From: Bacteroidaceae bacterium
GTDB taxonomy: Bacteria > Bacteroidota > Bacteroidia > Bacteroidales > Bacteroidaceae
Length of the DNA: 64,000 nt
Assembly: GCA_017429525.1 (NCBI GenBank)
Contig: JAFROT010000030.1
Location: 113,776-177,775 of the forward strand
Reading direction: 5' to 3'
This document shows, one piece after another, positions 29,844-45,632 of the stretch (within the stretch, counting starts at the first letter, position 1; every line of letters starts with the position of its first letter). A program made the translations under genes and the position numbers. The notes below the pieces were generated by a model. The model saw only the letters and a list, made by a program, of their open reading frames with translations. It had not been told where the DNA came from and did not search any database.

Positions 29844-29893
29844 CAACTAATGTCATTACCTTTTTTAGCGGAAAAGACACGTTCGGAATATCT

Positions 29894-30421: not shown

Positions 30422-30427
30422 AGTCGT

Positions 30428-31075
30428 TCAATATTCTTCTGGGTAATTCGTTCTGCAATCATAGCAAAGGCCTTTGGGATCCAGGCATTTGACGAGGATG
30501 CTCCGCTCTTTTCTTATCGGGTCGAAGGAAACGCAAACGCCCATGGCGGCTCCGATACCCTCCACCCAGCTGTCCTTGAACTTGTTGTCAGAGGTATAGA
30601 CGTCTACGACATTACGCATGATTCCCTCTATATATTTGCGAGGGGGATTAGTGGGTAGGAGGATGTAGCCGTACCAGCGTAAGATATTGCCCGATACCAG
30701 ACCAAAATCATAGAGCAGCCGTTCATCCCGCTTGCCTCTGTCGACGAACTTCACTTTCATCAGTGTGTCGCGCACGGCTCCGATGTAGTGCCATTCGGAG
30801 TCGCCATAGGTGGCCGCCTCGCGCAAGTACATCTTTTTATAATTCTTGCCTTTAAGGAGCGTGTCCCCTGCAATCTGATAGCGATATCTCTCGTGCAGAT
30901 CGTCGGTGTTTTCCGCAGCTGCGTAAACCCATACTTTTCCCTCTTCTGCAAAACTGTGATAATCCTCTGGAACCACCCGCTCGCTGTCGGGGACGATGAT
31001 ATCGTCTACAGTGCAGCCGAAGAAAGAGGACGCAATCAGGAGACAGAAAAAGGGTTTGATCAAAACTCTTGACAT
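30428..31075 (-). CDS. hypothetical lipoprotein
   Basis: Lipobox LLIASSFFGC. No recognisable domain. 6 nt upstream of the beta-barrel gene. Confidence 0.55.
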   Translation of the reverse strand: MSRVLIKPFFCLLIASSFFGCTVDDIIVPDSERVVPEDYHSFAEEGKVWVYAAAENTDDLHERYRYQIAGDTLLKGKNYKKMYLREAATYGDSEWHYIGAVRDTLMKVKFVDRGKRDERLLYDFGLVSGNILRWYGYILLPTNPPRKYIEGIMRNVVDVYTSDNKFKDSWVEGIGAAMGVCVSFDPIRKERSILVKCLDPKGLCYDCRTNYPEEY

Positions 31076-31117
31076 TGTATTGCTATTCCTGGTTATATTG
31101 GTATAACGTTTAAGATG

Positions 31118-31575
31118 TCAATTTATTTTAAGTTGAGCGCCTAAATTTACTTTGAAACCATTCTTTATGAAAACCCTGTGATTACCTTGAATAGTCAACT
31201 TGCCTCCGTTGACAATCACATTCCCTTCTGCTTCTAAGTCTGTTACGTCATTTCCAACATAAATGTTATCGCCAGTGATAGTAGAGTTGGTTGAAAAAAT
31301 TCGATTCTGCACATATACATTATTTCCGATATTTTTATGAACCTCCGTCGTAAAGGCTGCATAATTAGGTTTAGTAACAGTTACGATAAAATCAGCCGCA
31401 TTGGTATGGGATAAATCAAAAGAGTAACTGGATTATAGTATCATCAACAGCCACCGTCGATAGCAAAGTTAAGTCCTTTATAGAGCTTGGAAACTCAAGC
31501 GTAGAGCTCATATCGTCAAACTTATGAATACTAATCGGTACGGGAATGATGCTAATATTGTCAAGTGAATCAATA
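31118..31575 (-). pseudogene. frameshifted 3' fragment of a large surface-protein gene
   Basis: Two minus-strand reading segments, (R)IDSLDNISIIPVPISIHKFDD...TIIQLLF* and SYSFDLSHTNAADFIVTVTKPNYAAFTTEV...GNHRVFIKNGFKVNLGAQLKIN*, joined only by a frameshift near 31430. No start or N-terminal part. AT-rich. Confidence 0.6.
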
Positions 31576-31577
31576 CG

Positions 31578-31721
31578 TTACTTCATCAGCACCTTCCTAC
31601 CGTCCCTGATATAGACTCCTTTCGGGAGCACGGAGGGCACGGAGCAGGCAGAGGGCACAGAGAGGCGGCGACCAGAGAGGTCGTACCAGTTTCCCAGACT
31701 CTTCGAGGCTTCCTGCTCACT
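31578..31721 (-). pseudogene. orphan T9SS C-terminal sorting domain remnant
   Basis: Minus-strand frame reads EQEASKSLGNWYDLSGRRLSVPSACSVPSVLPKGVYIRDGRKVLMK*. GC-rich, no upstream coding body. Overlaps the stop of the mini-HlyD ORF. Confidence 0.7.
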
Positions 31722-32244
31722 CTATCCCCAATACACGAGGCAGTAGGTGGCGTTCACGCAAGATTATGGTGGCAGTGGCATCCATCAACCAAGGATCTTC
31801 GCGACGATCGAGGCTCCATAGCTCGAGTTCAAAACCACCTTTACTCGTGTGGTAATCTCCTACGCAGAGCTCAATGGGATAGAGTCCCGTGGAGTCTGAA
31901 TGCTGAGGGAGCGACTGAAGTTTGGCTGTGTAGTAGCCCCAACTCCTGTCCTTCACGTCCAGGGTGATGTGTGCCTCCATCCCTGGCCGCAATTGCTTCA
32001 AATTCGATGCTTCCACGTTTGTTCGAAAGTACCATTCGTTCGGTATACCTGTCACTTCCAGCGTCCCGTGTACCACCAACGTGTCCGGCCACGGAGTAAA
32101 CCAGCCCGCTGTCAGCAACGCCACCACAATGACAGTCATCAAGGCCATCCAACAGCGTAAAGTCCATTTCGGAGTGTTCCACTTGAACATCTCCTTTTTC
32201 TCGCTGTGATCCCACAACATTTTTTTGTTCTTGTTTGCTCCCAT
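31717..32244 (-). CDS. truncated HlyD-like adaptor (TM anchor plus beta-barrel, no coiled-coil hairpin)
   Basis: WMALMTVIVVALLTAGWFTPWPDTLVVHGTLEV parallels YVSLVVTALLMVMVVLSVLITYPDTVIGEVTLTS of the 430-aa HlyD. The C-terminus ATATIILRERHLLPRVL parallels GSAEIITEPKRLIERLF. Confidence 0.6.
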   Translation of the reverse strand: MGANKNKKMLWDHSEKKEMFKWNTPKWTLRCWMALMTVIVVALLTAGWFTPWPDTLVVHGTLEVTGIPNEWYFRTNVEASNLKQLRPGMEAHITLDVKDRSWGYYTAKLQSLPQHSDSTGLYPIELCVGDYHTSKGGFELELWSLDRREDPWLMDATATIILRERHLLPRVLGIE

Positions 32245-32340
32245 TTCTTTTGATTATTAAATGTTATATACAAATTTTATATAATCCTTAAGCCTTAAGT
32301 ATACTAAAGATGTCGGGACCTACACTCACATATAATAAAA

Positions 32341-34533
32341 CTACAATTCTGGAATTCCCTGAGAAGCATAGAGGCTGTAGTAGAAACCTTTCTTCTCCAT
32401 CAGTGTCATATGATTCCCGACCTCAACGATATGCCCGTCATGCATTACAATGATTTGATCGGCCCCTCTGATTGTACTAAGTCGATGAGCAATAACTACA
32501 ACTGTCCTGTTCTCAAAAGCACTTTCCAATGCATTGACAATTTTACGTTCATTGATTGTATCAAGAGCATTGGTAGCCTCATCAAGAAAAAGGAATTGCG
32601 GGTTACGATAGAGGGCTCGAGCTATCAATAAACGTTGTTTTTGCCCTCCGCTGAGGCCTCTGCCACGTTCGCCAATCATAGTTTTAAATCCTTTGGGCAT
32701 TGCATTAATTTCATCAAGAATTTGTGCTGTTCGGCAGCAATCCAAGACTCGTTCATGGTCTATATGTTCATCATCCAGAACAATATTTCCTAGAATAGTA
32801 TCACTGAACATCTTTCCATCTTGCATTACAACACCACAAATACTTCTCCATTTACGCAGATTTATGTTCGAAACATTCATTCCTCCCATCTTAATCTCAC
32901 CGAAAGATGGTTTGTAAAGACGTACCAATAGTTTTAACAGTGTGGACTTTCCACTTCCGCTTCCACCCACAATGGCAGTCACTTTGTTTTCTGGAATATG
33001 CAAATAGATGTTTTTTAGAACTAATGGGGCATTTGATGTGTACTGGAACACAACATTTTCAAACGTAATGTCTTTTTTTTCTGGCAAAATAGTTGTAGCC
33101 CCAAGCGAAAGCAATTCCTCCTCGTCTTCCAATTGCCGGATCTCATTCATCCGCAAGAATGATATCTTAGCATACTGAGCAGAAACGACAAAATTGATAA
33201 ATTGCACAAGTGGGCCATTGAGCATCCCAAGGATAAACTGTGTGGAAATCATTACGCCAAAGGTGATATCTCCTTTGATAACGGCTGTAGCACAGAAAAA
33301 GACTATCACCATATTCTTAATGCTATCAATGAATTGTGCTCCAAGATTTTGCATATTTGTAACAGCAAGAACTCGCTTGTTTACATGATACAGGCTTGCT
33401 TGTATGCCTTCCCATTTCCAACGACGCGAACGCTCATAATTGTAGATTTTAATATCTTGTATGGCCGACACCGTTTCAACCCAATAACTTTGGTTGCGCG
33501 AGACAAGTTCGAAGTACTGCCAATCCAATCTCTTGCGGATTTTCAAGAACAGAAGTACCCATGCTATATAGCAAACCGAGCCAGCAAGAAATACGAAGAA
33601 TATGGTTACATTATATACCAAGAGGATGAGTGAGAAAACCACAAACGTCAACAATGAGAAAATCATCGACAAAGAATTGTTCATGATAAACGCCCTTATA
33701 CGCTCATGATCCTGCGCTCGCTGAAGTATATCTCCAAGGAACTTATTCTCAAAGAACGTTACTGGCAGTTTCATCAATTTTATCAGATAGTCCGAAATCA
33801 GAGCCACGTTAACACGCGCAGTAATATGCATTAGTATCCAATCCCGCATCACATTGAATAACATCACACTTATCAATATGCAGACATTACCGATAAGTAC
33901 CATGTTTATGAAATTAATGTCCGAGGTACTTATACCCACGTCTATTACGGCTTTCGAGATAAAAGGCAGAATAGCTTGCAGAGCTGTCACAATTGTCATG
34001 ATACAGAAGATAAGTGCAAACTCACGAAGATATGGTCTGAAATAGCGCAACAAACTCACTATACTATCCTTCTGCTGACGGCGTTCCAATTCTGTTGCCT
34101 TGAAATCAGCAGTGGGTTCTATTGCCATCAAGACACCTGTTTGTTCACCTCTCAGATACCATCCATGACGAAACTCTTCATGCGTGTATCGGATATGACC
34201 TTTAGCAGGATCTGCCACATAGACGAATCTTTTGTCTGCATCATAGACAACTACGAAATGGCTTTCATTCCAGAATACTATAGCTGGTAATGGAACCTTA
34301 TACACCAAATCATTCAATGCGCAACGTATTACCAACGTATGTAATCCTATCTTTTCTGCACCAGTAGCGAGATTTGCTAACGAAACACCTTCTTTCGTGA
34401 TTCCTGAAAGATCACGCAGATACTGTAAAGAGTAATAGCGACCATAATACTTCGCCACCATCTTCAATGATGCAGGACCACAATCTTGAGAGTCCATTTG
34501 GTATTCTATTGGAAAGCGTCTAAAAAAGTTCAT
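32341..34533 (-). CDS. peptidase C39 domain-containing ABC exporter (PCAT, double-glycine leader processing)
   Basis: C39 catalytic QMDSQDCGPASLKMV and NESHFVVVYD. 6-TM domain. Walker A GGSGSGKST, LSGGQKQRLLIARAL, FLFLDEATNALD. Confidence 0.92.
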   Translation of the reverse strand: MNFFRRFPIEYQMDSQDCGPASLKMVAKYYGRYYSLQYLRDLSGITKEGVSLANLATGAEKIGLHTLVIRCALNDLVYKVPLPAIVFWNESHFVVVYDADKRFVYVADPAKGHIRYTHEEFRHGWYLRGEQTGVLMAIEPTADFKATELERRQQKDSIVSLLRYFRPYLREFALIFCIMTIVTALQAILPFISKAVIDVGISTSDINFINMVLIGNVCILISVMLFNVMRDWILMHITARVNVALISDYLIKLMKLPVTFFENKFLGDILQRAQDHERIRAFIMNNSLSMIFSLLTFVVFSLILLVYNVTIFFVFLAGSVCYIAWVLLFLKIRKRLDWQYFELVSRNQSYWVETVSAIQDIKIYNYERSRRWKWEGIQASLYHVNKRVLAVTNMQNLGAQFIDSIKNMVIVFFCATAVIKGDITFGVMISTQFILGMLNGPLVQFINFVVSAQYAKISFLRMNEIRQLEDEEELLSLGATTILPEKKDITFENVVFQYTSNAPLVLKNIYLHIPENKVTAIVGGSGSGKSTLLKLLVRLYKPSFGEIKMGGMNVSNINLRKWRSICGVVMQDGKMFSDTILGNIVLDDEHIDHERVLDCCRTAQILDEINAMPKGFKTMIGERGRGLSGGQKQRLLIARALYRNPQFLFLDEATNALDTINERKIVNALESAFENRTVVVIAHRLSTIRGADQIIVMHDGHIVEVGNHMTLMEKKGFYYSLYASQGIPEL

Positions 34534-35822
34534 TTTCCCTGTTGTGATTTTAGATTATCAAATAGCCGTTCGATGAGTCGTTTTGGTTCCGTAATAATCT
34601 CTGCTGAACCATGAGCTTCATACCCAACATCCAACGTAACACCGTAATTTGTCTGAAGTCCTTTTGGGAAATCCATCAATACCAAATAACTTTCCCTATT
34701 ACCGTTCAGAGTCTGCACTGATTGCTTTAAGTGCGAGATATGCTTCACTCGACCTTCCAAATGGCCAAACTCATCATAAGGATAGTTTTCTAGTTTCACA
34801 CTTACACGCTGTCCAACTTCCACTTTACCAAAACCTAAGGCTGATATATGTGCTTCACCGAAAATATTACCACGGAAAGGGAGTACAGTAAACAATATCT
34901 TCCCAGGCGTCACCATTTCATTCTCTCGCCAGAATCCCAGATATTCAAGACGCCCATTTATTGCAGACGTCAGAAGATAACGTTCCTTCCATTGTCGCAA
35001 TGAACTCCGCAATTCGTCTTCTTTCACCCGTACATAATTCAAAGCCTTATTGAGTTCTTCTTTCTCATTTATGCTCACTCGAGCTTTCTCAATTTGATTT
35101 TGCTGAATTTCCGACTGAGTTGAAAGGAAATTACTTTCTTGACTTATCTGCCTCTGCTCAAAAGCTATCACAGCACTATACCGATGTTCCATGTCTTCAT
35201 CACTGATGGCACCCTCATTATGTAATATACTATCTTTCACTAAGCGCAAACGTGATAGTTGCAAATCACCTTCATTCATTAGTAATTGGCGTTTCTGAAT
35301 CTCTGCTAAAGCATAATGAACCTGTATTTGTGCATCAAGCGACTGCAGCATATTCTTATAGACACTTGTCGAACGCAGTTGTTCCAGTTGCTGGCGAGCA
35401 AATACGACCTCATTGTACATACTACTTAAATTGCCTAATACCAATGACGGCAAGGGCTCGTTACTCATAGCATTACGACCTAAAAGGGAGTCCAGTAACA
35501 AAATGTCTGGCAACAACGCACCATCATCTACAAATGCAATAATATCCCCTACACAAACAGAGTCACCATCGGCATGCAACAGATGTAAACGCCCTGTCGA
35601 AGTTGCGACAAGACGGACAGGTGCGACCTCCGATGTTAAAGTAACCTCGCCAATCACGGTATCAGGGTATGTGATAAGGACGCTTAATACAACCATCACC
35701 ATTAATAAAGCTGTCACCACAAGCGATACATAGCGTGTCCATCCTGTCGGCATACGTTCAATTATATCTTGGACTTCTTCTGAACGGAACATCAGGTTTT
35801 CTTCATTTCGTACGGTATTCAT
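34530..35822 (-). CDS. HlyD family secretion adaptor protein
   Basis: N-terminal TM, long heptad-rich central region, C-terminal beta-barrel. ATGA overlaps with both neighbouring genes. Confidence 0.85.
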   Translation of the reverse strand: MNTVRNEENLMFRSEEVQDIIERMPTGWTRYVSLVVTALLMVMVVLSVLITYPDTVIGEVTLTSEVAPVRLVATSTGRLHLLHADGDSVCVGDIIAFVDDGALLPDILLLDSLLGRNAMSNEPLPSLVLGNLSSMYNEVVFARQQLEQLRSTSVYKNMLQSLDAQIQVHYALAEIQKRQLLMNEGDLQLSRLRLVKDSILHNEGAISDEDMEHRYSAVIAFEQRQISQESNFLSTQSEIQQNQIEKARVSINEKEELNKALNYVRVKEDELRSSLRQWKERYLLTSAINGRLEYLGFWRENEMVTPGKILFTVLPFRGNIFGEAHISALGFGKVEVGQRVSVKLENYPYDEFGHLEGRVKHISHLKQSVQTLNGNRESYLVLMDFPKGLQTNYGVTLDVGYEAHGSAEIITEPKRLIERLFDNLKSQQGK

Positions 35823-37300
35823 AAGTATTCCTCCTCAAGATTCTTTTTTTTTACAAAATCATACAGTGTAATTGTGCGTAGCTGATAGTATTCACTGAAC
35901 AAAGATTGTAGCGCTGAGAGCATATTCTTGAGAGATTCGCGCAGAGATTTGTGTGCATCTATAACCTCTGCAAGTGAAAACTCACCTTGGCTGAAACGAA
36001 GCATGGCAAGACGATATTGCTCCTGAGCTAAGGCGTATTGTTTTAGACCCAAACGATAACTGGCTGACGATTGATTGTAAACTTTTATGCTTTTATGGAT
36101 TTCTTGTTCTGCTTTTAGTAGAGATTCATTTATTCCTATTTGTGCCTGCTGGTAGTCATTCTCAGCCATCCTTCGACGATTACGACTAATACCCCAGTCA
36201 AAAGATGGAATACTCAGTGTCAGGCTTATACTTTGTCGATGATTAGGATGTCGATAGGCATTGCTGAATGTGTGAGCAAATTGATTAAGTCCATAATTAA
36301 TTGAAAGTTCTCCTCCGAGCCGAGTCGACAAACGCTGTTTCCTCAAAGTCTGCAACACCTGTTGTCGTTGAAGTTCCAAAGCTAGAACTTTCGGGGTGTT
36401 GGCCTGAGCAACAGCATACACCTCATTTTCGTCCAGCAAAAGTGGTAGGGCTGCAGCATCTGGTTTCACTACGTTGACATCCAACTCCACTAGGCCCAAA
36501 CGAGAACGTAACAAAAACAAGGCATCATTCAACTCTGTCTGAGAAGCCACCAAGGCTTGTTCTGCTTCAAATCGCTCAAGACGAATCACGTTTAATTCAT
36601 AGTCTGTGACATATCCGAGTTTACGACGCAACTGGCCAAAAGCCAACAAGGTATCACTAGCAGAAACATCCTGCTCTGCCTGCTCTTTCTCAACTTGAGC
36701 CATATAAGCTTTCAGATAAAGACGAGCTACATCTTGTTGCTCGTTTGCTAGAGCAGTGCAAAGCGTCTTCACAGCTACTTTGTACTGCAGGCGATTGATG
36801 GAACGCTCTATGATGTAGTCTTTATAGCCACCACGAAGACCTTGGCTATAACTTAAAGAGAATGGTGTAGAACTAAAGTTGTTTCGTGAGCCCGTGAATT
36901 CGCGCAGATAACTTAATCCAGAACTTGCCGTTAATATGCCGCCCAAAGGCCCAATCCTTTGCGAAAGGGTCAATGTAGCAACTGATGTGTTGACATAATC
37001 CTCCACACTGTGATACTCGCCTTTCTGTGGGTCTTGTAGAAGTCTCAAAGAGCGATTGAAACTTATTGGGTTCACGCTAAGTCCAATCATCGGCAGAAAG
37101 TCTTTCTTGTAGTTCTCATATTTGAGGACAGAGTTCTCATAATGCAATCGAGCTGAACGCGAACGAGGAGAGAGAAGAGCCTGCTTTTCTACCAAATAAG
37201 CAAACGACTTCGTATCCGTTTCACTAGACATCAGATTAAATCTGCATGACATCATCAATATTATAGCAACAAAAAGCCTATCCATTTTTATTGTACTCAA
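35819..37300 (-). CDS. TolC family outer-membrane channel
   Basis: 493 aa, signal sequence, two-fold repeated helix/strand pattern. First gene of the TolC-HlyD-PCAT operon. Confidence 0.8.
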   Translation of the reverse strand: MSTIKMDRLFVAIILMMSCRFNLMSSETDTKSFAYLVEKQALLSPRSRSARLHYENSVLKYENYKKDFLPMIGLSVNPISFNRSLRLLQDPQKGEYHSVEDYVNTSVATLTLSQRIGPLGGILTASSGLSYLREFTGSRNNFSSTPFSLSYSQGLRGGYKDYIIERSINRLQYKVAVKTLCTALANEQQDVARLYLKAYMAQVEKEQAEQDVSASDTLLAFGQLRRKLGYVTDYELNVIRLERFEAEQALVASQTELNDALFLLRSRLGLVELDVNVVKPDAAALPLLLDENEVYAVAQANTPKVLALELQRQQVLQTLRKQRLSTRLGGELSINYGLNQFAHTFSNAYRHPNHRQSISLTLSIPSFDWGISRNRRRMAENDYQQAQIGINESLLKAEQEIHKSIKVYNQSSASYRLGLKQYALAQEQYRLAMLRFSQGEFSLAEVIDAHKSLRESLKNMLSALQSLFSEYYQLRTITLYDFVKKKNLEEEYL

Positions 37301-37354
37301 TAATAACGTTTTCTACATCACATACTCCCTAAGTTCTGGAATAATAAGGAAATG

Positions 37355-37399
37355 TTCAAAAAAATCCTATATATGGGTGCCCAAATCTGGCACCCATAT
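37355..37399 (-). terminator. rho-independent terminator of the 970-aa gene
   Basis: atatgggtgcc (37371-37381) pairs with ggcacccatat (37389-37399). On the minus strand it is followed by ataggattttttt. Confidence 0.75.
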
Positions 37400-37503
37400 T
37401 GCAATAATCAATCATTTATTTAACGATCCATAAAACAACATTAAAAATGATAACTTTATCCAGTCGCTTTATCCATAATCAAGTCCGCATTAACTCGCCA
37501 TAC

Positions 37504-40416
37504 TCATTTGTTATACAGCAGTTGTCCGTCAGCCTCTTGGCCTTCAGCCTCAACGAGGATGCTGGTTTGCTGGCTGTTGTTGTAGAAGGTGACGTTCGCT
37601 CGGCCATCGTCGTCGAGTTGCAGGTCGGGATTCCAGTAGAGCGTGCGACGGTAGTCCTTCTGACCCTCCACTGGCGGGTTGCGCTGATAGTCGGGATGGT
37701 AAAAGTCTTCCTGATAAGCGAATCCTGGCAGGATGTAGCGGCGGTCACGATAAGTTACCCGGCGTGCCCAGTCAGGGTAGCGGTGAAGCGACACCTCCAC
37801 GCTGGGCTGGTTGCCCTGTTCGTAACGCTCATCACCCTCGCGACGAGGCGAGTAATCGGAGTAGACATACACTTTATCCAGATATTCCAGACGTTGGTAG
37901 CGTCTCTTGTCGCCACGCGGCATGAACGGTGGCGTAAATCTACTCATTGCGTCCTCATCCTTGCTCACGAAACGCATAGGCAACGAGTCGAAGTAGAGCT
38001 TGAAGTCGTAGAAACGGTTCATACCCATATCACCGATATAGAGGCTGGCAGTCTGCGTGCCGAGGTCGTCGGAATTGGAATAGTGCGTCATCAGCCCGGC
38101 ATCCATAATTTCATTGAACACGGCATAAGCATCTTTCACATAGGCGGGCTTGGAGAGGTCTATGCGCCGCTTACCTCCATGACTGGCACGTACGATGACT
38201 TGTTCCAGTAGATGATCCCCATCTGTCGTGAGCGCTGATGGGAGGACATCTTCACGTAATGAGGCATTATGTACTTGATAGTAAGTGTAAGGTTTGACAA
38301 AACGGGGATAAGGGAAGTTCAGACGGACATAGTATTCGGGAAATGTCTTCAGCCGATCGTTTTCGTCTGCCTCCATCTCCACCCAGTTGAACGTCTTGTT
38401 TTTGCTCCACTTTGCCGTGTCGCTGGCTGCGAGGAAGAAGACGCACTCGCCCTCAAAGCGAGGCAGTTCCATACGGAAGGCACCACCGCGTGTCTCCACA
38501 TCGCCCACGATGCCATTCTTAGGATCATCGGGATGGAAGAACTCAGCATGTACGCGCACCTCACGTCTCAGATTGCCCCGCTCGATGAAGCGACGTTCAC
38601 TCTCCCTGACGCGCTCCCTCTGCTCGGATGACTCATGCGTCAGCGCATTGTACGACCGATTGTCAATCGCCTGATTTCCGAAACCGTCATTGTCTACACG
38701 GCTCCGCTCCACAACGCTACTGGAGGGACGTAACCCAAACGTTCGTTCGCCATCATATTGCTTTTCAGTTCCAATGCCATCGAGCAGCAGATAGTGGGAC
38801 TCCAGTGCTGCAGCATAGTCCTCATCCTCCTCAGCATACGTATTGTAGCGGTTGACGGTACCCGTCACCATCTGTGTCTGCTCTGCGGGATGTGTCAGTT
38901 CGAAGGCACCACTGACAGCCATGTCCTGCCAGTTGAAACGGCGCCAACCCTGCGTCAGCATCAGCAGGTCGAGCCCACGACGATGCTCCTCGTCGTCCTT
39001 CTCGAAGAACCACTCCGCCTGTGGCACGAAGCCCTTGATTTCCGATGCCAGCAACATCTCTGTCATGATATTGCCGCTATCGAATGTCACATCCGTGTGG
39101 GCGGCATCGCGGACGGCGAGAGAGAAGTAAGACGCTGAATGAGAAGCATTGGCTGAGGATGTCTTCGTTTTCGCTATCGTCAACGCTACTTTTTCGAATG
39201 GCTTGTATTGATCCTTTACGCCGTTGATGGCCAACGTTGGCGTCATCATATCCGTGGACGTGACGAAGAAAAGACGGTCGGCATACACCCGGCCGTCTGC
39301 ATCGAAGACCGTCAGTTGGTGGACACCAGGGGAAGTAGTGGGAAGTTGAAAGACAAAAGAGTTAGACGATTGAGTGTCAGCATTGCCTAATGTCTCGAAA
39401 TGCTCGAGGACACCTTCACGCATCACCGTCACCCCCAGTTGTTTCTCCTGCGTCTTGCCGCAGACATAGATCTCAGCCTGCCACTCACCGCTGTGCTGAT
39501 GCAACTGCAGTGCTACGCCTTCGGCCACAACAGTTTTGATTTCCTGACGAACTTGCGCGCCGTCGTTGCTCGCAGTGAACACCACTTCGTAGTTCTGTCC
39601 CGCTTCAGGTGTGAACGTGAATGTACCTCGCCCACGGTTTTCGCTCGTCACGAAATCCACGGTCTCACCTTGATTGTTTTCTATTTTCTGATTCTCATTT
39701 TTCACCCTGATTGCTAGTGAGCCTTCGCGAACCTCACCCTCGTTCGTTGCCACCTCGAAAGCGACGCGGCACGGCACACCTGCTACGAGGTTACCACCCT
39801 CGGGGAATAACGACAACCGCAGCTGGGGCTGCGAAGGGGCATCCTTGAAGTAACGGCGTAGCGGGCGAAGTGTCATATCTTTGTAGAAATCACCCGCTTC
39901 CTTAGGTTTGTCATAAACAGGGAACACGCGCGAGTAAAGCTTGTCGTAGTCACGGTAATAGTCCTTTGCCATGCCTTTGTTGTAAAAGCTCAGTTCTCGT
40001 GTCCAGCGATGCGCATGCTCCGTCTGGCCCCAGTTCAGCTGCCAGCGTGTGTACGCACGCAATTCGAAATACCCACTATAGAGCGAATCGGGTAAGGCGA
40101 AGAAGCCATGCCCTCGACCGTCTTGCATCTCGATCAGCTTACGCTCAACGAGGTAGCCATCGTGGTTCCATAGTTCGGCATACAACACACGCGAGATCTT
40201 GCTTGGGCGGTCGCCATTCGTCCGCCGCGTGTAGGCAGCAAACCAGATGGTGTCGCCGAGATAGTAGCTTGTATTATCCATGTGTACATAAACCTTCTCT
40301 TGCGGAATGCGCTCCCCAAAGAGGCGCAACCGCTGCGTGAGGCTGTCCATGCAGCTCTCTGCGGAGGCCGCGAATGTGCTGAGTAGAGTCAGCATACTGA
40401 CGAAAATAGTCTTCAT
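37504..40416 (-). CDS. large secreted protein with MG2/alpha-2-macroglobulin-like N-terminal region
   Basis: Signal MKTIFVSMLTLLSTFAASA. QEKVYVHMDNTSYYLGDTIWFAAYT...VLYAELWNHDGYLV...GYFELRAYTRW pattern. Host-like GC. Family call made from memory only. Confidence 0.55.
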   Translation of the reverse strand: MKTIFVSMLTLLSTFAASAESCMDSLTQRLRLFGERIPQEKVYVHMDNTSYYLGDTIWFAAYTRRTNGDRPSKISRVLYAELWNHDGYLVERKLIEMQDGRGHGFFALPDSLYSGYFELRAYTRWQLNWGQTEHAHRWTRELSFYNKGMAKDYYRDYDKLYSRVFPVYDKPKEAGDFYKDMTLRPLRRYFKDAPSQPQLRLSLFPEGGNLVAGVPCRVAFEVATNEGEVREGSLAIRVKNENQKIENNQGETVDFVTSENRGRGTFTFTPEAGQNYEVVFTASNDGAQVRQEIKTVVAEGVALQLHQHSGEWQAEIYVCGKTQEKQLGVTVMREGVLEHFETLGNADTQSSNSFVFQLPTTSPGVHQLTVFDADGRVYADRLFFVTSTDMMTPTLAINGVKDQYKPFEKVALTIAKTKTSSANASHSASYFSLAVRDAAHTDVTFDSGNIMTEMLLASEIKGFVPQAEWFFEKDDEEHRRGLDLLMLTQGWRRFNWQDMAVSGAFELTHPAEQTQMVTGTVNRYNTYAEEDEDYAAALESHYLLLDGIGTEKQYDGERTFGLRPSSSVVERSRVDNDGFGNQAIDNRSYNALTHESSEQRERVRESERRFIERGNLRREVRVHAEFFHPDDPKNGIVGDVETRGGAFRMELPRFEGECVFFLAASDTAKWSKNKTFNWVEMEADENDRLKTFPEYYVRLNFPYPRFVKPYTYYQVHNASLREDVLPSALTTDGDHLLEQVIVRASHGGKRRIDLSKPAYVKDAYAVFNEIMDAGLMTHYSNSDDLGTQTASLYIGDMGMNRFYDFKLYFDSLPMRFVSKDEDAMSRFTPPFMPRGDKRRYQRLEYLDKVYVYSDYSPRREGDERYEQGNQPSVEVSLHRYPDWARRVTYRDRRYILPGFAYQEDFYHPDYQRNPPVEGQKDYRRTLYWNPDLQLDDDGRANVTFYNNSQQTSILVEAEGQEADGQLLYNK

Positions 40417-40457
40417 AGTCGTAGGCTTTTTAGATTGGTTAGACATGATTTCGACGG

Positions 40458-40465
40458 CAAAGGTA
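40458..40465 (-). promoter_or_regulatory. -7 box (TAccTTTG) for the 970-aa gene
   Basis: Plus-strand caaaggta, only 12 nt from the listed ATG at 40446, so the ATG at 40416 is the likely start. Confidence 0.45.
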
Positions 40466-40820
40466 CGGACTTTTCAGTCACCCGTCAAGCATCTAGTGTG
40501 GAAAAATGAAATGAAAGAAAAGTTATTTAAGCCGCTCTTTTTTTATCAATTATCCTTGTATGCTTACATTAATACTGTGGAAATCGTATCTTTATTATAG
40601 CTCATATTATTGGAAAAATCAGTCCTACTGGATTGTATGTGAGTTCAGGTATAGGACATTAAAAGCCAAATCTTATCTGTAGTAAAGGAATAGACTATTG
40701 GCCGAGGCATTTGAACAATGATCATAATTTACATTTTTCCGATAAAAGTGACTCACGCCTAACCCAGCAGAACTGATTATTATATTAAAATTAATATATA
40801 GAATAATCCACACAATGAAA

Positions 40821-41471
40821 TTACACAGTAGGCAAAGTATATTCAGCCCCTTGTTGATTAGATGTGTTTCGAATTATTACTTTAATACCTCCTTCTACTT
40901 CTTCAAAATGATAGGCAATATACATTAGACCTACATGTTGACTAAGCATAGTACTTCTAGCCCAATTAAAGAAATTCGTCATTTCAATAGAGTTTTTTTC
41001 TAAGCCTGATTGACCAGCAGCTTCATTCACAATTTGTTCCAACCATACTTGATTCACATTTGGTTCATCATCTGTACTAAAACCGAATAATGTTGAATAT
41101 TCAGACACATAATCCCAAGATACTTTGAATTGCTTATCTGAATAAAAAGACATCAATGCTTGATAGTAGTTATTCTCATCTGAAACACCATAAGCAATCT
41201 GATAGTCAATGTCAGACATCACTGTTCCCCAATTTACACTTGATGATGTTCCAGAATAGTCTTCAAAATAATTAAGGAATTCATCAATATCAGGATAAGA
41301 GTCACTTGGGAAATAAGAAGGATTACCATAAAGTGCAATCATCTCCTCATAAGAGAGATAAGCATCCTCCCCGTCTAAGCTCATTCCACCTACCAGACTT
41401 TTACTCTGAGTAGAGCTTACAACTTTGTAGTTCTTTGCGAGTTGCTCCAATGAATAGCTTTTAATTTTCAT
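40821..41471 (-). CDS. 216-aa acidic protein with double-glycine-type leader (candidate PCAT cargo)
   Basis: N-terminus MKIKSYSLEQLAKNYKVVSSTQSKSLVGG|MSLDGED. No Sec signal, TM helix or Cys. The mature part is rich in D/E/Y/S. AT-rich gene 28 nt downstream of the GT14-MT gene. Confidence 0.6.
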   Translation of the reverse strand: MKIKSYSLEQLAKNYKVVSSTQSKSLVGGMSLDGEDAYLSYEEMIALYGNPSYFPSDSYPDIDEFLNYFEDYSGTSSSVNWGTVMSDIDYQIAYGVSDENNYYQALMSFYSDKQFKVSWDYVSEYSTLFGFSTDDEPNVNQVWLEQIVNEAAGQSGLEKNSIEMTNFFNWARSTMLSQHVGLMYIAYHFEEVEGGIKVIIRNTSNQQGAEYTLPTV

Positions 41472-41499
41472 AATTTTATTATTTTAAAATGATTAATAG

Positions 41500-42945
41500 C
41501 TACCTCGCCAATAGCAGCGAGAGTTTATGATTTCTTACTAAATTCTGATTCAAAATAGATGTGCCAAGTTCATCTTTTTTGAAGCCCAACTCTTGAAACG
41601 ATATTTCGTATTCATTAATGCTTTTTAAACCCTTTTTAAAAGATTGAAAAGCCTCTATAATCAAGATATATCGTTTTGAAAGACGAGCAATATTTTGTAC
41701 CGCTTTATCCCTGAACTGCATAGGAATACAGCTCAGTGTATCCATACTTAATACGAGGTCAAAAGGGGAATCTACTTCTATATTATCTGTTAAATCTGCT
41801 ACCCCACACAACTCATCATTTTTGGGGAGTAACAAAGATGACAACTTTGGAGTATATGGATTTGCATCATAACCAGCCGTTGGGATCCCTCTTTTTCTTA
41901 GAGCTGCTGTATAGAAACCTGCTCCACATCCAATATCCAGCACATTTAGTATTTTCAAGGAGCGACACGTTTTATAGATCTCACGAAGAATATTATAATC
42001 ATAAGAATACCGCATAAGACCATCGTATCTCCAGCCACCAGTTTTAGTAACTTCGTATGCAGACTGTTTTAGTAAGTAGGTATCTATATTGTGGACTAAG
42101 TCCGCACAAATTGGATACTCCATCTTTCGTGCAAAATAGAAATCTTTGGATGATGCCAACGCATGAAAATGCTTCATTCCCAGATTTGCAGGACAATTCC
42201 CATTCTCTTCTCTCCAAATGATAAATCGAAGATCTGAGGGTACGATTCTACTTTTCCCAACAATATTTACCAATACCGTTGCAATGTAATATTCCTCTGC
42301 AGCAAAAGTCCAACGAGCACGATGATAAAAAGAAGGATGTTGCGATGTATAGTGAATAATTGCTTTGGTTGCTTCATAAGTTATAGAAAACCATTGTGTA
42401 CTTCCATAAAGATGGTCAAACTGATCTGGAATACGCCGTTTGATTCCCAACTTATGTTCTAAGTTAATTATTTTTTGCATCCACTTTATAGCGTCTTTGC
42501 TTTCTTTATTTATATAATCATAAGGGAAATAGTATTGGAATCTAGAAAACGTATATTGATCCCAACGAGGATTTGGAATATTTGCATAACGAATAAATTC
42601 TTTGCCCTGTTTCTTTTCAAAAAAAGAGAGAAATTCATCAAGTGGTTTAATTGGGTAATCTTGCCCACTTATGAGATGAATATAATCGTAGCCACCATCC
42701 TTCACCACTTGTCGAAGTAAAAAAATTTCTGTTTTAAGAATGCTATGTCCCCCCCAGTGAACATTATACTTTCGATACACTGCACGAACTTGTGATATAC
42801 AAGCTATTGAAGATAATTCTTCATCTGAAATAACAGCTTTCTTGTCAATATGTACATAAATAGAGCAGTCCTTAATAAAATACTCTATCAAGTGGCGAAG
42901 CTGACCAAAGTCTTTGTGCGCTAATATCAAAATGGCATGTTTCAT
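41500..42945 (-). CDS. GT14 (core-2/I-branching type) glycosyltransferase fused to a class I SAM-dependent methyltransferase
   Basis: N-terminal half MKHAILILAHKDFGQLRHLIEYF...YVHIDKK...VHWGGHSILKTE...HLISGQDYPIKP. C-terminal half VLDIGCGAGFYTAALRKRG...FDLVLSMDTL. Confidence 0.75.
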   Translation of the reverse strand: MKHAILILAHKDFGQLRHLIEYFIKDCSIYVHIDKKAVISDEELSSIACISQVRAVYRKYNVHWGGHSILKTEIFLLRQVVKDGGYDYIHLISGQDYPIKPLDEFLSFFEKKQGKEFIRYANIPNPRWDQYTFSRFQYYFPYDYINKESKDAIKWMQKIINLEHKLGIKRRIPDQFDHLYGSTQWFSITYEATKAIIHYTSQHPSFYHRARWTFAAEEYYIATVLVNIVGKSRIVPSDLRFIIWREENGNCPANLGMKHFHALASSKDFYFARKMEYPICADLVHNIDTYLLKQSAYEVTKTGGWRYDGLMRYSYDYNILREIYKTCRSLKILNVLDIGCGAGFYTAALRKRGIPTAGYDANPYTPKLSSLLLPKNDELCGVADLTDNIEVDSPFDLVLSMDTLSCIPMQFRDKAVQNIARLSKRYILIIEAFQSFKKGLKSINEYEISFQELGFKKDELGTSILNQNLVRNHKLSLLLAR

Positions 42946-43017
42946 TGCAAACTTCTATAGCTATTCCTAATGATGATTGAAACACTTTTACATAAATTTT
43001 TGGGAGAAACCGAGCTT

Positions 43018-43392
43018 CTATAGCTCGATCTCTCCGATGAAACTTTGTTCACCACGTACGACTTCAATGAGGTAAGTGCCACAAAGTTCTGACGGCAGTA
43101 TGATATACGTCTCGTCAGCGGGGACATAGGTGGTATAAACGATTTGCTCGTCACCATTCTCATCTTCCTCCTTAATATATACCGTGAACGCGCAGGAATC
43201 CCAGAAGTAGAGAGTATGGTCTTCAAGACTGACGGAAGGAACACGGATAGGAGCGCGACTATAACCAGGTTCTGGATCTGTATAAGTGATGGGGCCATCG
43301 AGCACCAACGGTATACGATTATCAATTGAATCACCTGCGAAGGTGTTCAGGGCTGCCAGAGTGAGGCAGAGGGATAGGAAAAGTCTCTTCAT
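43018..43392 (-). CDS. DUF3244-like small secreted beta-sandwich protein
   Basis: Signal MKRLFLSLCLTLAALNTFAG. LEDHTLYFWDSCAFTVYIKEED...CGTYLIEVVRGEQSFIGEIEL pattern. Confidence 0.6.
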   Translation of the reverse strand: MKRLFLSLCLTLAALNTFAGDSIDNRIPLVLDGPITYTDPEPGYSRAPIRVPSVSLEDHTLYFWDSCAFTVYIKEEDENGDEQIVYTTYVPADETYIILPSELCGTYLIEVVRGEQSFIGEIEL

Positions 43393-43461
43393 AGTTTTGA
43401 TGAGTTTGTTTGAAATAGGTAAATAATGATTTTAAGTTAAATGGATTTCCGCAATCCGTTG

Positions 43462-43469
43462 CAAAGGTA
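43462..43469 (-). promoter_or_regulatory. -7 box (TAccTTTG) for the DUF3244/GT14-MT/GG-protein operon
   Basis: Plus-strand caaaggta, 70 nt upstream of the ATG at 43392. Confidence 0.5.
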
Positions 43470-43588
43470 TAGCGATGCGACGAAAAAAAATTTCACAATA
43501 TTTCAATTCTCACTTTTCGATTTCACAATATTTCACTCGCAAAGAGAAAAAAGTGGCCGTAAGAGATTGGGATTCCGTGAATTCTATG

Positions 43589-43596
43589 TATCTTTG
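43589..43596 (+). promoter_or_regulatory. -7 box (TAtcTTTG) for the TPR-HTH regulator
   Basis: tatctttg, 25 nt upstream of the ATG at 43621. Confidence 0.5.
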
Positions 43597-43620
43597 CGCA
43601 TCCACAAAAAAGTTTCGATC

Positions 43621-45303
43621 ATGAACCGCTTTATATCTATCTTTTGTTGTGTTTTTCTCTTGACAGGATGTCAGGAACGCTCCATCAAGAGCGATCTTGA
43701 TGTCTACGAGAGCAACCTCGAAAAGACTCCGAAGGCCATCTATGAGATCCTGAATGGCCTACAACCGACGAACGATGGAGACCGCGCACGCCACGCCTTG
43801 CTGACTATTAAGGCGAAGAACTTGGCCTATATCCCGTTGGAGGGGAAAGATACCATCGCTATCTTAGATGCCATCGACTATTACCAGAGACGCAGCGTCA
43901 CGGAACAGGTGATGCTGGGGTACTACCTTCTCGGCAGTATCTACCGGGACTTGGGGGATGCGCCACGAGGCGTGGAGGCTTTCACAAGAGTGATTGAGGT
44001 CGCAGACACCACACGGAAGGACTGCAACTACAGACTGATGGCAAGAGCAGAGGCGCAGAAAAGTAATCTGCAATCAGCCCAAAGTGTTCTGCCAAAAGCT
44101 ATTGAATCATCCTATCGTGCAGAATATTACGCAAGGATGGCAAAAGACACTTCCTATGTGTTTGAACTCGCTTTAGGAACTATAGGTTTATCAATGCTCA
44201 ATGGGAACCCCAAACCTTTATTGGAGGAAGCACCGCTCCTTATGGAAAAATGCCTGGAATTTGGTGATACAGCAATTGCTCTCGGCTACGCCAAGGCTTG
44301 GGCTTGGTATTACCTACAATTAGGAATTGTAGATAAAGCAGAGCAGTTGGTTGCCTTCTATGACCAATTTAATGGCACCCCCTATCCCATCTACTACGGC
44401 ACTAAGGGAGAACTCTATCTGGCTCGTCACCAGGTGGATTCGGCTGAAAGATGCTTCCGCAAAGAGCTGAAGGCCACGGACTGGAACAACAGGCAAACAG
44501 CCTATCGAGGACTGAAGAAGGTGTTCGAGCAGCGGCATCAAGCGGACTCGGCGCTGAAATATGCAACCTTGCAATGTGATGCCGTAGACAGCGACTACTA
44601 CCATAAGGTATCCGATGCCATCATACAGATGGAGCACGTCTATAACTATGAGGCAGCGAAGGAACAGGCTCGGCGCAGCGAGATGGCACAACAGCGAATG
44701 AGGTGGACAATAGGATGGATCGTGATGGCAATGGCAGTAGCCGCGTTGGCTGCCCTGCTCGCATTCCGCACCTACCGTGACCGACAACGGCGCCGACTGC
44801 TCCAGGAGGAGGCGAAGAACGAAGCCATCAGGGCACAACTGGCAGAAAAAGACAAGCAGTTGGCGCTGGAGGAGAACCGAAGGATGAAGAAACTGCTGGA
44901 TTACCAGAAGAAGATGGAAGGGATGCAGGCCACCATCGAGGAGTTCCGTGAAGAGGTGCGGTCGTTAGATGCCTTAGGCGACGGCGTACGACAGATGCGC
45001 AAGCAACTGGAAAGCGGGAAGCATGCCTCGATCCGCAACTGGGAGGCACTGCAGCATCAGGTGGTCAGACTGCACCCCGACTTCGTCAAGACGTTGCGCA
45101 AGGAGATCAACCCTCTACAGGCGAACGACCTCCATCTGGCGTTGCTCATCAAGATGGGATTCAAGCCGAGCGAGATTGCCGTACTCATGGACAAGTCGCC
45201 CTCCAGCATCTCGATGGCACGCACCCGCCTCTACGCCAAGCGCTTCGGCACCAACCCGCCAACGCCCGAAGCCTTAGACGAATGGATTGAAGAGATAGAA
45301 TGA
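43621..45303 (+). CDS. transmembrane TPR sensor with cytoplasmic coiled coil and C-terminal HTH
   Basis: Lipoprotein-like signal MNRFISIFCCVFLLTGCQ. TPR-like repeats. TM WTIGWIVMAMAVAALAALLAF. Heptad-rich segment. C-terminal LHLALLIKMGFKPSEIAVLMDKSPSSISMARTRLYAKRFG. Confidence 0.7.
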   Translation: MNRFISIFCCVFLLTGCQERSIKSDLDVYESNLEKTPKAIYEILNGLQPTNDGDRARHALLTIKAKNLAYIPLEGKDTIAILDAIDYYQRRSVTEQVMLGYYLLGSIYRDLGDAPRGVEAFTRVIEVADTTRKDCNYRLMARAEAQKSNLQSAQSVLPKAIESSYRAEYYARMAKDTSYVFELALGTIGLSMLNGNPKPLLEEAPLLMEKCLEFGDTAIALGYAKAWAWYYLQLGIVDKAEQLVAFYDQFNGTPYPIYYGTKGELYLARHQVDSAERCFRKELKATDWNNRQTAYRGLKKVFEQRHQADSALKYATLQCDAVDSDYYHKVSDAIIQMEHVYNYEAAKEQARRSEMAQQRMRWTIGWIVMAMAVAALAALLAFRTYRDRQRRRLLQEEAKNEAIRAQLAEKDKQLALEENRRMKKLLDYQKKMEGMQATIEEFREEVRSLDALGDGVRQMRKQLESGKHASIRNWEALQHQVVRLHPDFVKTLRKEINPLQANDLHLALLIKMGFKPSEIAVLMDKSPSSISMARTRLYAKRFGTNPPTPEALDEWIEEIE

Positions 45304-45632
45304 GAACGAAAAAGAAAAACGGGAATGTGCTTTGCGCAGAAATCGCGCAAACGTTTTGATGAGGAAAATAAATGCGTTTTTTGACTTAGGAAAGTAAATG
45401 GGATTCACCTCGACGAAGAAATCAAACAAAATCGATAACAAAATCAAACAAAGATTATTTTTGACGAAGAAAGTAAATACGCAGGAATGCGCAGTAAATG
45501 ATTTCAGTAAATAGATGTTATTCAAGTTTCGGTTGTTCTACATGGGTCGGCCGAGCGCTCGCCGCAGACGACCCCATTCCATCTTTATACTCTTTTTTCT
45601 GCGTTTTCTAATTCACTTTTGAAAATAATGCG

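Follow-up and report, generated by a model that had tools for sequence, protein, structure and literature searches.

A glycosyltransferase-methyltransferase fusion encoded beside secreted antibacterial toxin genes of Bacteroidales suggests toxin decoration before export

What might an enzyme that joins a glycosyltransferase to a methyltransferase be doing when its gene lies next to that of a protein with a double-glycine (GG) leader? We addressed this question for a locus in a stretch of 64,000 nucleotides from a gut Bacteroidaceae bacterium (contig JAFROT010000030.1; "the window"), where an earlier note had proposed that the fusion, here called GT14-MT, may modify the neighbouring cargo protein or may make a methylated glycan. 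The fused enzyme is encoded beside secreted antibacterial toxin genes in nearly every relative that we examined, which suggests a form of toxin decoration before export that has gone undescribed; literature searches found no description of a GT14-MT/toxin system.

The fusion gene and its surroundings

The features of the window on which the argument draws are these:

32341..34533 (-): PCAT, a C39 peptidase-ABC exporter fusion; catalytic Q12, C18 and H92 present
34530..35822 (-): HlyD-type periplasmic adaptor (domain search)
35819..37300 (-): TolC-like outer membrane factor, OEP (domain search)
37504..40446 (-): 980-aa secreted protein without a confident family (Pfam, neighbourhood census, PDB search)
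40821..41471 (-): 216-aa cargo/toxin candidate (ORF, orthologues, hhalign)
41385..41471 (-): 29-aa double-glycine leader of the cargo, MKIKSYSLEQL...SLVGG (alignment of 8 orthologues)
41500..42945 (-): GT14-methyltransferase fusion, 481 aa (ORF, Pfam domains, about 500 homologous fusions, AF2 model)
41638..41946 (-): predicted class I SAM-methyltransferase domain of the fusion, residues 334-436 (Pfam, homologue alignment, fold matches)
42178..42930 (-): GT14 (Branch) domain of the fusion, apparently XT1-like, residues 6-256 (Pfam, homologue alignment, XT1 comparison)
43018..43392 (-): DUF3244-like small secreted protein of 124 aa (in 14 lineages it precedes GT14-MT on the strand of the fusion)
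43441..45303 (+): divergent TPR/TM/DUF6377-like regulator (near GT14-MT in 18-20 lineages)

The 481-aa open reading frame contains all the motifs quoted when it was first read (AILILAHKD, YVHIDKK, VHWGGHSILKTE, HLISGQDYPIKP and VLDIGCGAGFYTAALRKRG), and Pfam bears out the architecture proposed for it, a GT14 domain fused to a class I SAM methyltransferase: Branch/GT14 (PF02485) matches residues 6-256 (E 7.7e-19; 68.7 bits against a cut-off of 23.4), and Methyltransf_11/23/25 match residues 334-436 (E 2.8e-8; for Methyltransf_11, 34.7 bits against a cut-off of 21.2). The AF2 model of the fusion has a pLDDT of 85 and a pTM of 0.82, and no signal peptide or transmembrane segment is evident by eye in the sequence. 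The reported gap of 28 nt to the cargo gene is exact, the stop codon of the fusion occupying 41500-41502 and the next gene starting at 41471. The locus also lies outside any capsule or LPS cluster, as had been stated: no capsule or LPS genes occur in its flanks, one of which holds a TPR regulator, nadB and priA and the other a Peptidase_S13 gene and a sensor phosphatase.

The GC3 of the GT14-MT and cargo genes (26-30%) differs from that of all their neighbours in the window (36-40% for the secretion genes; 72-86% for nadB, priA and the S13 peptidase), and because the two genes share this value, their composition points to a two-gene module that was transferred together. Promoter and terminator scans gave matches no more numerous than expected by chance, and no tRNA or Rfam element marking the island was found. 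PADLOC returned a weak methyltransferase match only, and we therefore draw no link to anti-phage defence.

We predict that the 216-aa protein, whose N-terminus reads MKIKSYSLEQLAKNYKVVSSTQSKSLVGG, is a PCAT substrate. It carries a conserved GG-type leader, the second Gly of which is invariant in the alignment of 8 orthologues, followed by a conserved helix motif (LSYEEMIALYG), and its operon includes a C39-ABC gene with catalytic residues intact. The same gene order recurs in lineages L007, L008 and L054. No curated leader or precursor model in Pfam or NCBIfam matches the 216-aa protein, and sequence searches of the PDB with the cargo and with the 980-aa protein found nothing; the latter accompanies only cargo of the window type (5 lineages).

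Predicted activities of the two halves

The N-terminal half had been read as a GT14 enzyme of the core-2 branching type. The family assignment stands (Pfam Branch) but the type probably does not, since the domain is far closer to human XT1 by both sequence and fold. XT1 is its best sequence match among characterised relatives (E 7.5e-22, against 1e-5 for C2GnT), and in a Foldseek search with the AF2 model, whose GT-A fold is superimposable on both enzymes, XT1 scores E 3e-13 and C2GnT-L E 3e-9. On these sequence and model comparisons the GT14 half resembles an XT1-type peptide O-xylosyltransferase rather than a core-2 branching enzyme, at an identity to XT1 of about 20%.

XT1 O-xylosylates Ser in disordered, acidic Ser-Gly peptides (structure PDB 6EJ7); its catalytic Glu is E529, an R598/K599 basic pair replaces the DxD metal site, and in its xylose pocket W392 and W495 exclude hexoses while D494 contacts the xylose (PMC5992326). 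The elements conserved in the GT14 domain are W64-G-G, S93-x-Q-D-Y-P, W185, E217/E218, R273/K274 and the loop W244-x-x-E-N-G-N-x-P-A-N-L. In common with XT1, GT14-MT has the catalytic Glu (E218, aligned with E529 and with C2GnT-L E320) and the Arg/Lys diphosphate pair (R273/K274, aligned with R598/K599), all invariant in 22 homologues, and both xylose-pocket Trp (W64 of the WGG motif and W185, aligned with W392 and W495), which are invariant too, both being replaced by Tyr in C2GnT-L. Counting against the XT1 assignment, the counterpart of D494 is Gln184, kept in at least 90% of the GT14-MT family. The two enzymes differ further in that a shorter invariant loop, WxxENGNxPANL, takes the place of the XT1 acceptor flap (555-575), in that GT14-MT lacks the Xylo_C domain and has the methyltransferase at its C-terminus instead, and in location, XT1 being Golgi-luminal and GT14-MT predicted to be cytoplasmic.

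Judged by its sequence, profile matches and modelled fold, the C-terminal half is a class I SAM-dependent methyltransferase. It has motif I (LDIGCGAG) and a post-I acidic residue after beta-2 (D360); D337, G339, G341, G343 and D360 are invariant among the aligned GT14-MT homologues, and a fold comparison of the AF2 model gives a Rossmann-like fold with matches that include ChlM and PMT. Its resemblance is to generic class I enzymes only.

A glycosyltransferase-methyltransferase fusion, WsaE, reportedly caps the glycan in the Geobacillus S-layer glycan pathway, where it is said to act on a lipid-linked polymer later moved to protein. WsaE offers a parallel for GT and SAM-methyltransferase modules on one polypeptide, for a protein-linked glycan and for methylation as a terminal cap, but its GT families and domain order are different and it has no toxin linkage.

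Toxin-like neighbours across the family

The fusion is no rarity; it belongs to a large family, with about 498 clusters of homologues at 90% identity. Nearly all of the best 120 of these clusters are about 480 aa long, and precomputed Pfam assignments give both domains for most of them and Branch alone for a minority. For a neighbourhood census we took 39 independent lineages of GT14-MT, each a cluster at 90% identity. A toxin-like neighbour is encoded on the same strand in 37 of the 39, usually between -19 and +74 nt from the fusion gene and in no case farther away than about 3.3 kb; the remaining two lineages are contigs of 2.5-3 kb, too short for neighbours to be assessed. GG/AG leaders or type I secretion genes occur in only about 10 of the 39, with type I secretion genes within 10 kb in about 5-6. 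Of what the earlier note had proposed, then, the link between GT14-MT and its cargo is upheld, whereas the GG leader and PCAT are not its constant companions (GG/AG leaders, about 10/39): what accompanies the fusion throughout is a module at the toxin N-terminus. The comparison of neighbourhoods argues strongly that GT14-MT and the cargo beside it are functionally linked.

The toxin partners have a common N-terminal module (consensus KG[ST]xxNPY[TS]xxE...GTWxGGYVxGxGY) and differing C-termini, among them CHAP, NlpC/P60, C39_2-like, DUF6782, DUF5675, JAB1, Lipase_3 and Amidase_5 domains. No model in Pfam or NCBIfam matches the module. A HMMER scan of representative proteins found 483 that carry it, almost always at the extreme N-terminus among the 150 listed, and a search of an index of 5.8 billion proteins with a profile of the N-terminal toxin domain returned only 6 short fragments. 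In hhalign, the N-terminus of the window cargo aligns with NPYT-type toxin N-termini (probability 90%, E 1.4e-6). Since the N-terminal module is shared, the C-termini vary and the window cargo is homologous to the module, GT14-MT appears to follow what is constant in the toxins, whereas the candidate immunity genes beside them (for small secreted, TPR or TM proteins) vary.

A conserved N-terminal module with interchangeable C-termini places these partners, by sequence, among polymorphic toxin systems. The likeness to those systems and to colicin-like bacteriocins covers a constant module followed by variable toxin domains (peptidoglycan hydrolases, peptidases and a lipase), candidate immunity genes alongside that encode differing small secreted or membrane proteins, and Gly/Ser-rich linkers whose D-S/P-W-G repeats recall the translocation domains of colicins. 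The difference is the GT-MT enzyme, here a near-universal companion and undescribed for polymorphic toxin systems.

The toxin linkers (Ser 19%, Gly 17%, Asp 11%) offer candidate acceptor sites. In related toxins they are acidic and Ser-Gly-rich and resemble the disordered, acidic, Ser-Gly-rich peptides that XT1 modifies, in which the acceptor Ser precedes Gly/Ala and has acidic residues upstream. The window cargo lacks a long acidic Ser-Gly linker and has only EDYSG at residues 70-74, which is not kept in its closest homologues. Two other motifs were considered and set aside: the near-invariant Thr/Ser of NPYT as a glycosylation site, which fits an S/T-x-x-E helix N-cap and is Asn in one orthologue, and KG[ST] as a degenerate GG cleavage site, which in the alignment of members with a leader falls downstream of their true GG.

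Genes for sugar enzymes, a possible source of the donor, adjoin GT14-MT at some loci. A UDP-glucuronate decarboxylase (UDP-xylose synthase, UXS) gene does so in 7-8 of the 39 lineages (match to human UXS1, E 1e-98), and GLF with a WbbM-like DUF4422 gene in 9-12; the window has no UXS, GLF, DUF4422 or DUF707 gene. In four homologues (P0018, P0021, P0061 and P0095) GT14-MT carries a fused DUF707/DUF3405-like domain. Lineage L092 has this domain joined to a stand-alone C39 leader peptidase that keeps catalytic Q, C and H, and in L015 and L017 its gene overlaps that of such a peptidase. These fusions tie the C39 leader-peptidase domain to candidate sugar enzymes, DUF707 being termed only "GT-A like" in the literature and the single-sequence AF2 model of the P0018 domain having a pLDDT of 36.

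In the glycocin systems of Firmicutes (sublancin, with SunA/SunS/SunT, and glycocin F), the gene for a dedicated glycosyltransferase of the cytoplasm adjoins that of a GG-leader bacteriocin precursor, and a PCAT-type ABC transporter both cleaves the precursor and exports it. The window locus is like them in having a GG leader, a PCAT exporter and a dedicated glycosyltransferase beside the precursor. It differs in enzyme, a seemingly XT1-like GT14 with a fused SAM methyltransferase against a SunS/GccA-like GT2; in cargo, a predicted 187 aa when mature and 200-470 aa in relatives, against a disulfide-stapled peptide of less than 50 aa; and in host, a Gram-negative member of the Bacteroidales that needs HlyD and TolC. 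Most GT14-MT family members, moreover, have neither a GG leader nor an adjacent PCAT.

A proposed role and its alternatives

From the domain architecture, catalytic residues, toxin linkage and domain fusions described above we infer an acceptor, a donor, a methylation target and a biological purpose. GT14-MT would be a cytoplasmic maturation enzyme that O-glycosylates, probably with a pentose, and methylates a secreted polymorphic antibacterial toxin of Bacteroidales before export, a reading that we rate at an even chance. The XT1-like domain would move a sugar, most likely a pentose such as xylose, from a UDP-sugar to Ser (or Thr) in the still unfolded precursor of the toxin, and the fused methyltransferase would then methylate that sugar or possibly the protein. 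In the window, the C39 domain of PCAT would next remove the 29-aa GG leader, and the 187-aa product would leave through PCAT, HlyD and TolC. The modification may serve protease or glycosidase resistance, export, or target recognition. A fuller version, in which the family is the first prokaryotic peptide O-xylosyltransferase, with a methyl-capping methyltransferase fused to it, decorates a large, hitherto unrecognised family of colicin-like polymorphic toxins of gut and rumen Bacteroidales before export under the guidance of the N-terminal module, and in some lineages is assisted by a C39-sugar-enzyme fusion, is one we hold tentatively and think doubtful as a whole.

One human-gut lineage comprises 34 loci. 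In about 13 of them, each with 3.6 kb or more of sequence upstream, GT14-MT is intact and is accompanied only by immunity-like secreted proteins, no toxin lying within 10 kb; the enzyme is thus retained there without an adjacent substrate. Such loci would be expected if GT14-MT served self-protection, altering the envelope receptor or import route of the producer that the toxin N-terminal module recognises, much as receptor-glycan replacement is reportedly linked to BSAP toxins in Bacteroides, and co-variation with the module would follow equally if the module were the receptor-binding part. We nevertheless consider glycan masking unlikely: GT14-MT appears soluble, with no lipid-carrier, flippase or ligase partner seen, individual toxins are already accompanied by candidate immunity genes, the chain of fusions from C39 through the DUF3405-like domain to GT14-MT points to leader-bearing peptide substrates, and XT1, the closest characterised homologue, acts on peptides.

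The toxin as acceptor is itself deduced, and the regulator (18-20 lineages) and the DUF3244-like gene (14 lineages) are conserved neighbours too, so that the enzyme might have a different target within the cassette, such as the DUF3244-like protein, the 980-aa protein or a ligand of the regulator, or might make a small methylated glycoconjugate, toxin adjacency reflecting co-regulation only. This we find quite improbable, as the DUF3244-like gene and the regulator are missing from many toxin-paired loci (for example L048, L009 and L065) and the toxin is the sole near-universal partner of GT14-MT.

That GT14-MT is an ordinary LPS, capsule or general O-glycan tailoring enzyme beside a bacteriocin locus by chance is very hard to believe and is largely refuted by the census: although one database names a homologue beta-1,6-N-acetylglucosaminyltransferase, and the GLF, DUF4422 and UXS genes added at some loci are found in polysaccharide loci as well, a toxin neighbour in 37 of 39 lineages is far more than coincidence would give, the window locus sits between nadB and the Peptidase_S13 gene, flippase (Wzx), polymerase (Wzy) and initiating-transferase families are absent from the recurrent neighbours, and no homologue was found in a recognisable polysaccharide locus, the setting that the earlier note had named as speaking against its proposal.

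If toxin maturation is indeed the role of GT14-MT, bacteriocin glycosylation would no longer be confined to small peptides of Firmicutes but would include protein-sized toxins from the dominant Gram-negative phylum of the gut. A widespread, unstudied enzyme family of about 500 clusters would gain a function, and a new N-terminal module of toxins would be defined (483 representative clusters). The family would also provide a tractable bacterial relative of XT1, with which proteoglycan synthesis begins in metazoans. Methyl-capped O-glycans on the disordered segments of such toxins could account for their survival in a gut rich in proteases and glycosidases, and this survival would matter for competition among strains in Prevotella/Segatella-like and rumen communities.

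The GT14-MT fusion and its locus

Every GT14 and methyltransferase motif quoted in the earlier note is present in the 481-aa fusion protein (GT14-MT), and ORF coordinates confirm that its stop codon lies 28 nt from the ATG of the cargo ORF. In Pfam the Branch/GT14 domain covers residues 6-256 (E = 7.7e-19; 68.7 bits against a cut-off of 23.4), and residues 334-436 match models of class I methyltransferases, Methyltransf_11 scoring above its cut-off (E = 2.8e-8); NCBIfam gives weak, generic methyltransferase matches. The N-terminal residues MKHAILILAHK form the fold's first beta-strand and not a signal peptide.

Features of the window locus
31717-32244, minus strand: 175-aa membrane protein, downstream of PCAT
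37504-40446, minus strand: 980-aa secreted protein, weak MG2 match, otherwise no confident family
40821-41471, minus strand: cargo, 216-aa GG-leader protein, N-terminus MKIKSYSLEQLAKNYKVVSSTQSKSLVGG
41500-42945, minus strand: GT14-MT fusion, 481 aa
43018-43392, minus strand: 124-aa DUF3244-like secreted protein, one of a group of ~120-aa proteins

The remaining minus-strand operon genes encode the 980-aa secreted protein, a TolC-like outer membrane factor (OEP), HlyD, a C39 peptidase-ABC exporter fusion (PCAT) that keeps Gln12, Cys18 and His92 in its C39 domain, and the 175-aa membrane protein. Upstream of GT14-MT come the 124-aa protein and, transcribed divergently, a TPR/DUF6377-like regulator. 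One flank of the locus carries nadB and priA and the opposite flank a Peptidase_S13 gene; capsule and LPS genes are absent, in agreement with the earlier note. The window's PriA shares 90% identity with a protein whose annotated source is a Bacteroidaceae MAG.

Window 29500-45400 is mosaic in composition. GC3 is 26% in the cargo gene and 30% in GT14-MT, 36-40% in the PCAT, HlyD and OEP genes, about 61-63% in the 980-aa gene and the regulator, and 72-86% in the host genes nadB, priA and S13 peptidase; set against these neighbours, the cargo and GT14-MT therefore look like a co-acquired two-gene module. The nadB-like and Peptidase_S13 genes are adjacent in L009, another locus with a GT14-MT homologue, but flank the cassette ~16 kb apart in the window, which suggests that the interval between them is an insertion site.

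Homologues of the 980-aa protein, which has no PDB match, are 858-957 aa long and occur in only five lineages, all with window-type cargo, where they always sit between the cargo gene and secretion or C39 genes. Locus L008 has a 390-aa CarboxypepD_reg-like protein in its place, and a 192-aa gene at the position of the 175-aa membrane protein gene, whose product has a weakly HlyD-like N-terminal anchor (BLASTP E 0.08). The ~120-aa DUF3244-like proteins always lie immediately 5' of GT14-MT on the same strand (14 lineages); the L002 member (2210-2599) matches DUF3244 at E 7.5e-5, and by eye the C-terminus resembles a T9SS-type sorting domain.

The fusion is no oddity: GT14-MT matched 498 clusters in a 5.8-billion-protein index, a large family. 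Nearly all of the best 120 of these have a length of ~480 aa and share 42-67% identity with the window protein, and in precomputed Pfam annotation most of the 120 carry both domains and a minority Branch alone. An alignment of 22 sequences places constraint on both halves, with W64-G-G, S93-x-Q-D-Y-P, W185, E217/E218, R273/K274 and the loop W244-x-x-E-N-G-N-x-P-A-N-L invariant in the GT14 half, and motif I (D337, G339, C340, G341, G343) plus D360 in the other. Confidence in the AF2 model is high (pLDDT 85, pTM 0.82).

Toxin-like partners across the family

Our census covered 88 loci besides the window. Clustered at 90% identity, their GT14-MTs and the window's give 39 lineages. In most of these, a small HMM of a recurring neighbour (consensus GGPKGSSTNPYTQEEYESMLDAGTWEGGYVEGLGYVLP) matches an ORF on the GT14-MT strand; with eight lineages carrying window-type cargo, two ORFs leaving contig ends (L078, L089) and the truncated L085 added, a toxin-like neighbour is found in 37/39, the other two being 2.5-3 kb contigs too short to judge. 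The toxin-like ORF usually lies -19 to +74 nt from GT14-MT and never more than ~3.3 kb away. The window-type N-terminus (leader plus helix LSYEEMIxxYG) and that of the larger group are homologous by hhalign (probability 90%, E 1.4e-6). L054, in which a GG leader goes together with the complete NPYT...WxGGYV module and with OEP, HlyD and PCAT genes, bridges the two.

The tie to a GG-leader/PCAT substrate drawn in the earlier note holds in the window but not for the family at large, with GG or AG leaders in about 10/39 lineages and type I secretion genes within 10 kb of GT14-MT in about 5-6/39. On the neighbour-joining tree of GT14-MT, loci with window-type cargo split over two clades, and other GG-leader/type I secretion loci fall elsewhere (L054 beside one of these clades, L079 on its own branch).

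Recurrent neighbours of GT14-MT (lineages of 39)
TPR/DUF6377-like regulator: 18-20
DUF707/DUF3405-like proteins: about 16
DUF3244-like small secreted protein: 14
DUF4422 (WbbM-like): 10-12
UDP-galactopyranose mutase (GLF): 9-10
UDP-glucuronate decarboxylase (UXS; human UXS1, E 1e-98): 7-8

Judged by sequence, the partners are predicted polymorphic toxins. A search of 1.84 billion representative proteins finds 483 with the N-terminal module (E <= 1e-3). In the best 150 of these it lies almost always at the extreme N-terminus, and those that are full-length have 200-470 aa. A Pfam census of 109 module proteins found C-terminal NlpC/P60 (8), DUF5675 (5), CHAP (4), C39_2-like (3), Toxin-JAB1 (2), Amidase_5 (2) and Lipase_3 (2) domains, most having no Pfam match there. 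The linker between module and toxin domain is rich in Ser (19%), Gly (17%) and Asp (11%), with D-S/P-W-G repeats and poly-Gly runs, and is in this like colicin translocation domains, which are disordered; the repeats recall the colicin Tol box and suggest that the toxins may be imported into target cells in a colicin-like manner. D-S-W or S-D-P-W-G repeats followed by poly-Gly runs are seen in L070 (11476-12345), L065 (2700-3407), L033 (5139-6047) and many other linkers.

Variable small secreted, TPR or TM proteins adjoin the toxins as candidate immunity proteins, and the GG-leader toxin of L054 is followed by three paralogous membrane proteins in tandem (4687-6016; 135-137 aa), likely an immunity gene array. 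The 84-aa database protein P0157 ends in LSLIHISEPTRH, which resembles translated sequencing adapter; the short contig that encodes it is therefore probably a chimera.

Predicted donor, acceptor and methylation

The earlier note's core-2/I-branching label stands as to GT14 family, but the closest solved relative of the GT14 half is human xylosyltransferase 1 (XT1; E 7.5e-22, 80.8 bits), ahead of the core-2 GlcNAc-transferase (C2GnT-L) both by sequence (only E 1e-5) and by fold (3e-13 for XT1 against 3e-9). In XT1, E529 is the catalytic base, aligned with C2GnT-L E320; the UDP-xylose site includes D494, R598 and K599, with W392 and W495 in contact with the sugar and W392 shutting out hexoses; and the acceptor requires Gly or Ala after Ser, with upstream acidic residues preferred (PMC5992326).

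XT1 residues and their counterparts (HMMER alignment)
E529: window E218; C2GnT-L E320; invariant in family
R598/K599: window R273/K274; invariant in family
W392: window W64; C2GnT-L Tyr; invariant in family
W495: window W185; C2GnT-L Tyr; invariant in family
D494: window Gln184; C2GnT-L Ala; at least 90% conserved in family

In place of the XT1 acceptor flap, GT14-MT has the shorter, invariant ENGNxPANL loop. GT14-MT is a GT14 and class I methyltransferase member with XT1-like features and putative xylosyltransferase activity; these residues, together with adjacent UXS genes, suggest that the donor is a pentose and the acceptor a peptide. The methyltransferase half has every class I hallmark and resembles only generic enzymes (ChlM, TehB, UbiG, PMT). 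Going by known glycosyltransferase-methyltransferase fusions, we favour O-methylation of the sugar that the GT14 half would transfer.

Four family members (P0018, P0021, P0061, which is L030, and P0095) carry an extra N-terminal DUF707/DUF3405-like domain, 35-44% identical to those of C39 loci (alignment A6). In L015 (14810-16023) and L017 (6904-8112) a stand-alone C39 gene is followed by a DUF3405/DUF707-like gene with a 4-nt overlap, and in L092 (9897-11144) the two are fused in 415 aa. The catalytic Gln, Cys and His are intact in all three, and no ABC transporter lies near these C39 genes despite AG/GG-leader cargo. C39 binds and cleaves leaders; its attachment to a sugar-pathway domain that other family members have joined to GT14-MT argues for leader-bearing toxins as the probable substrates.

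Proposed toxin maturation and its alternatives

We propose, at about an even chance, that in the cytoplasm GT14-MT would O-glycosylate, probably with a pentose, and methylate the unfolded toxin precursor; C39 cleavage and export would follow, in the window through PCAT, HlyD and TolC.

A role of GT14-MT in self-protection is a good deal less probable; the human-gut lineage beside hisGDCB bears on it and is the chief caveat to the proposed maturation. Its island is strain-variable over 34 loci (L026, L028, L051 and L063 contrast with L031, L033, L039 and L066): about 10 carry DUF4422 and a toxin, with immunity-like genes in some strains, and ~13 with adequate flanks retain an intact GT14-MT and immunity-like genes only. 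The latter arrangement, secreted immunity-like proteins lacking a toxin, looks like orphan immunity and fits self-protection. Exchange of the cassette with its conserved flanks left in place, or toxin genes located elsewhere in the genome, would account for it just as well. Unrelated polysaccharide tailoring is essentially excluded, since no flippase, polymerase or initiating-transferase family is among the recurrent neighbours in the 39 lineages, and the fusions do not, therefore, sit consistently in polysaccharide loci.

Toxin maturation by GT14-MT as proposed would work much as glycocin maturation does, to which the earlier note compared it; the analogy stops short of the features that define glycocins, since the glycosyltransferase is not of family GT2 and the cargo is not a small disulfide-stapled peptide. 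We found no description of the GT14-MT/toxin pairing in the literature searched, and specialists would be surprised by a toxin-decoration system this widespread and testable in the dominant phylum of the gut.
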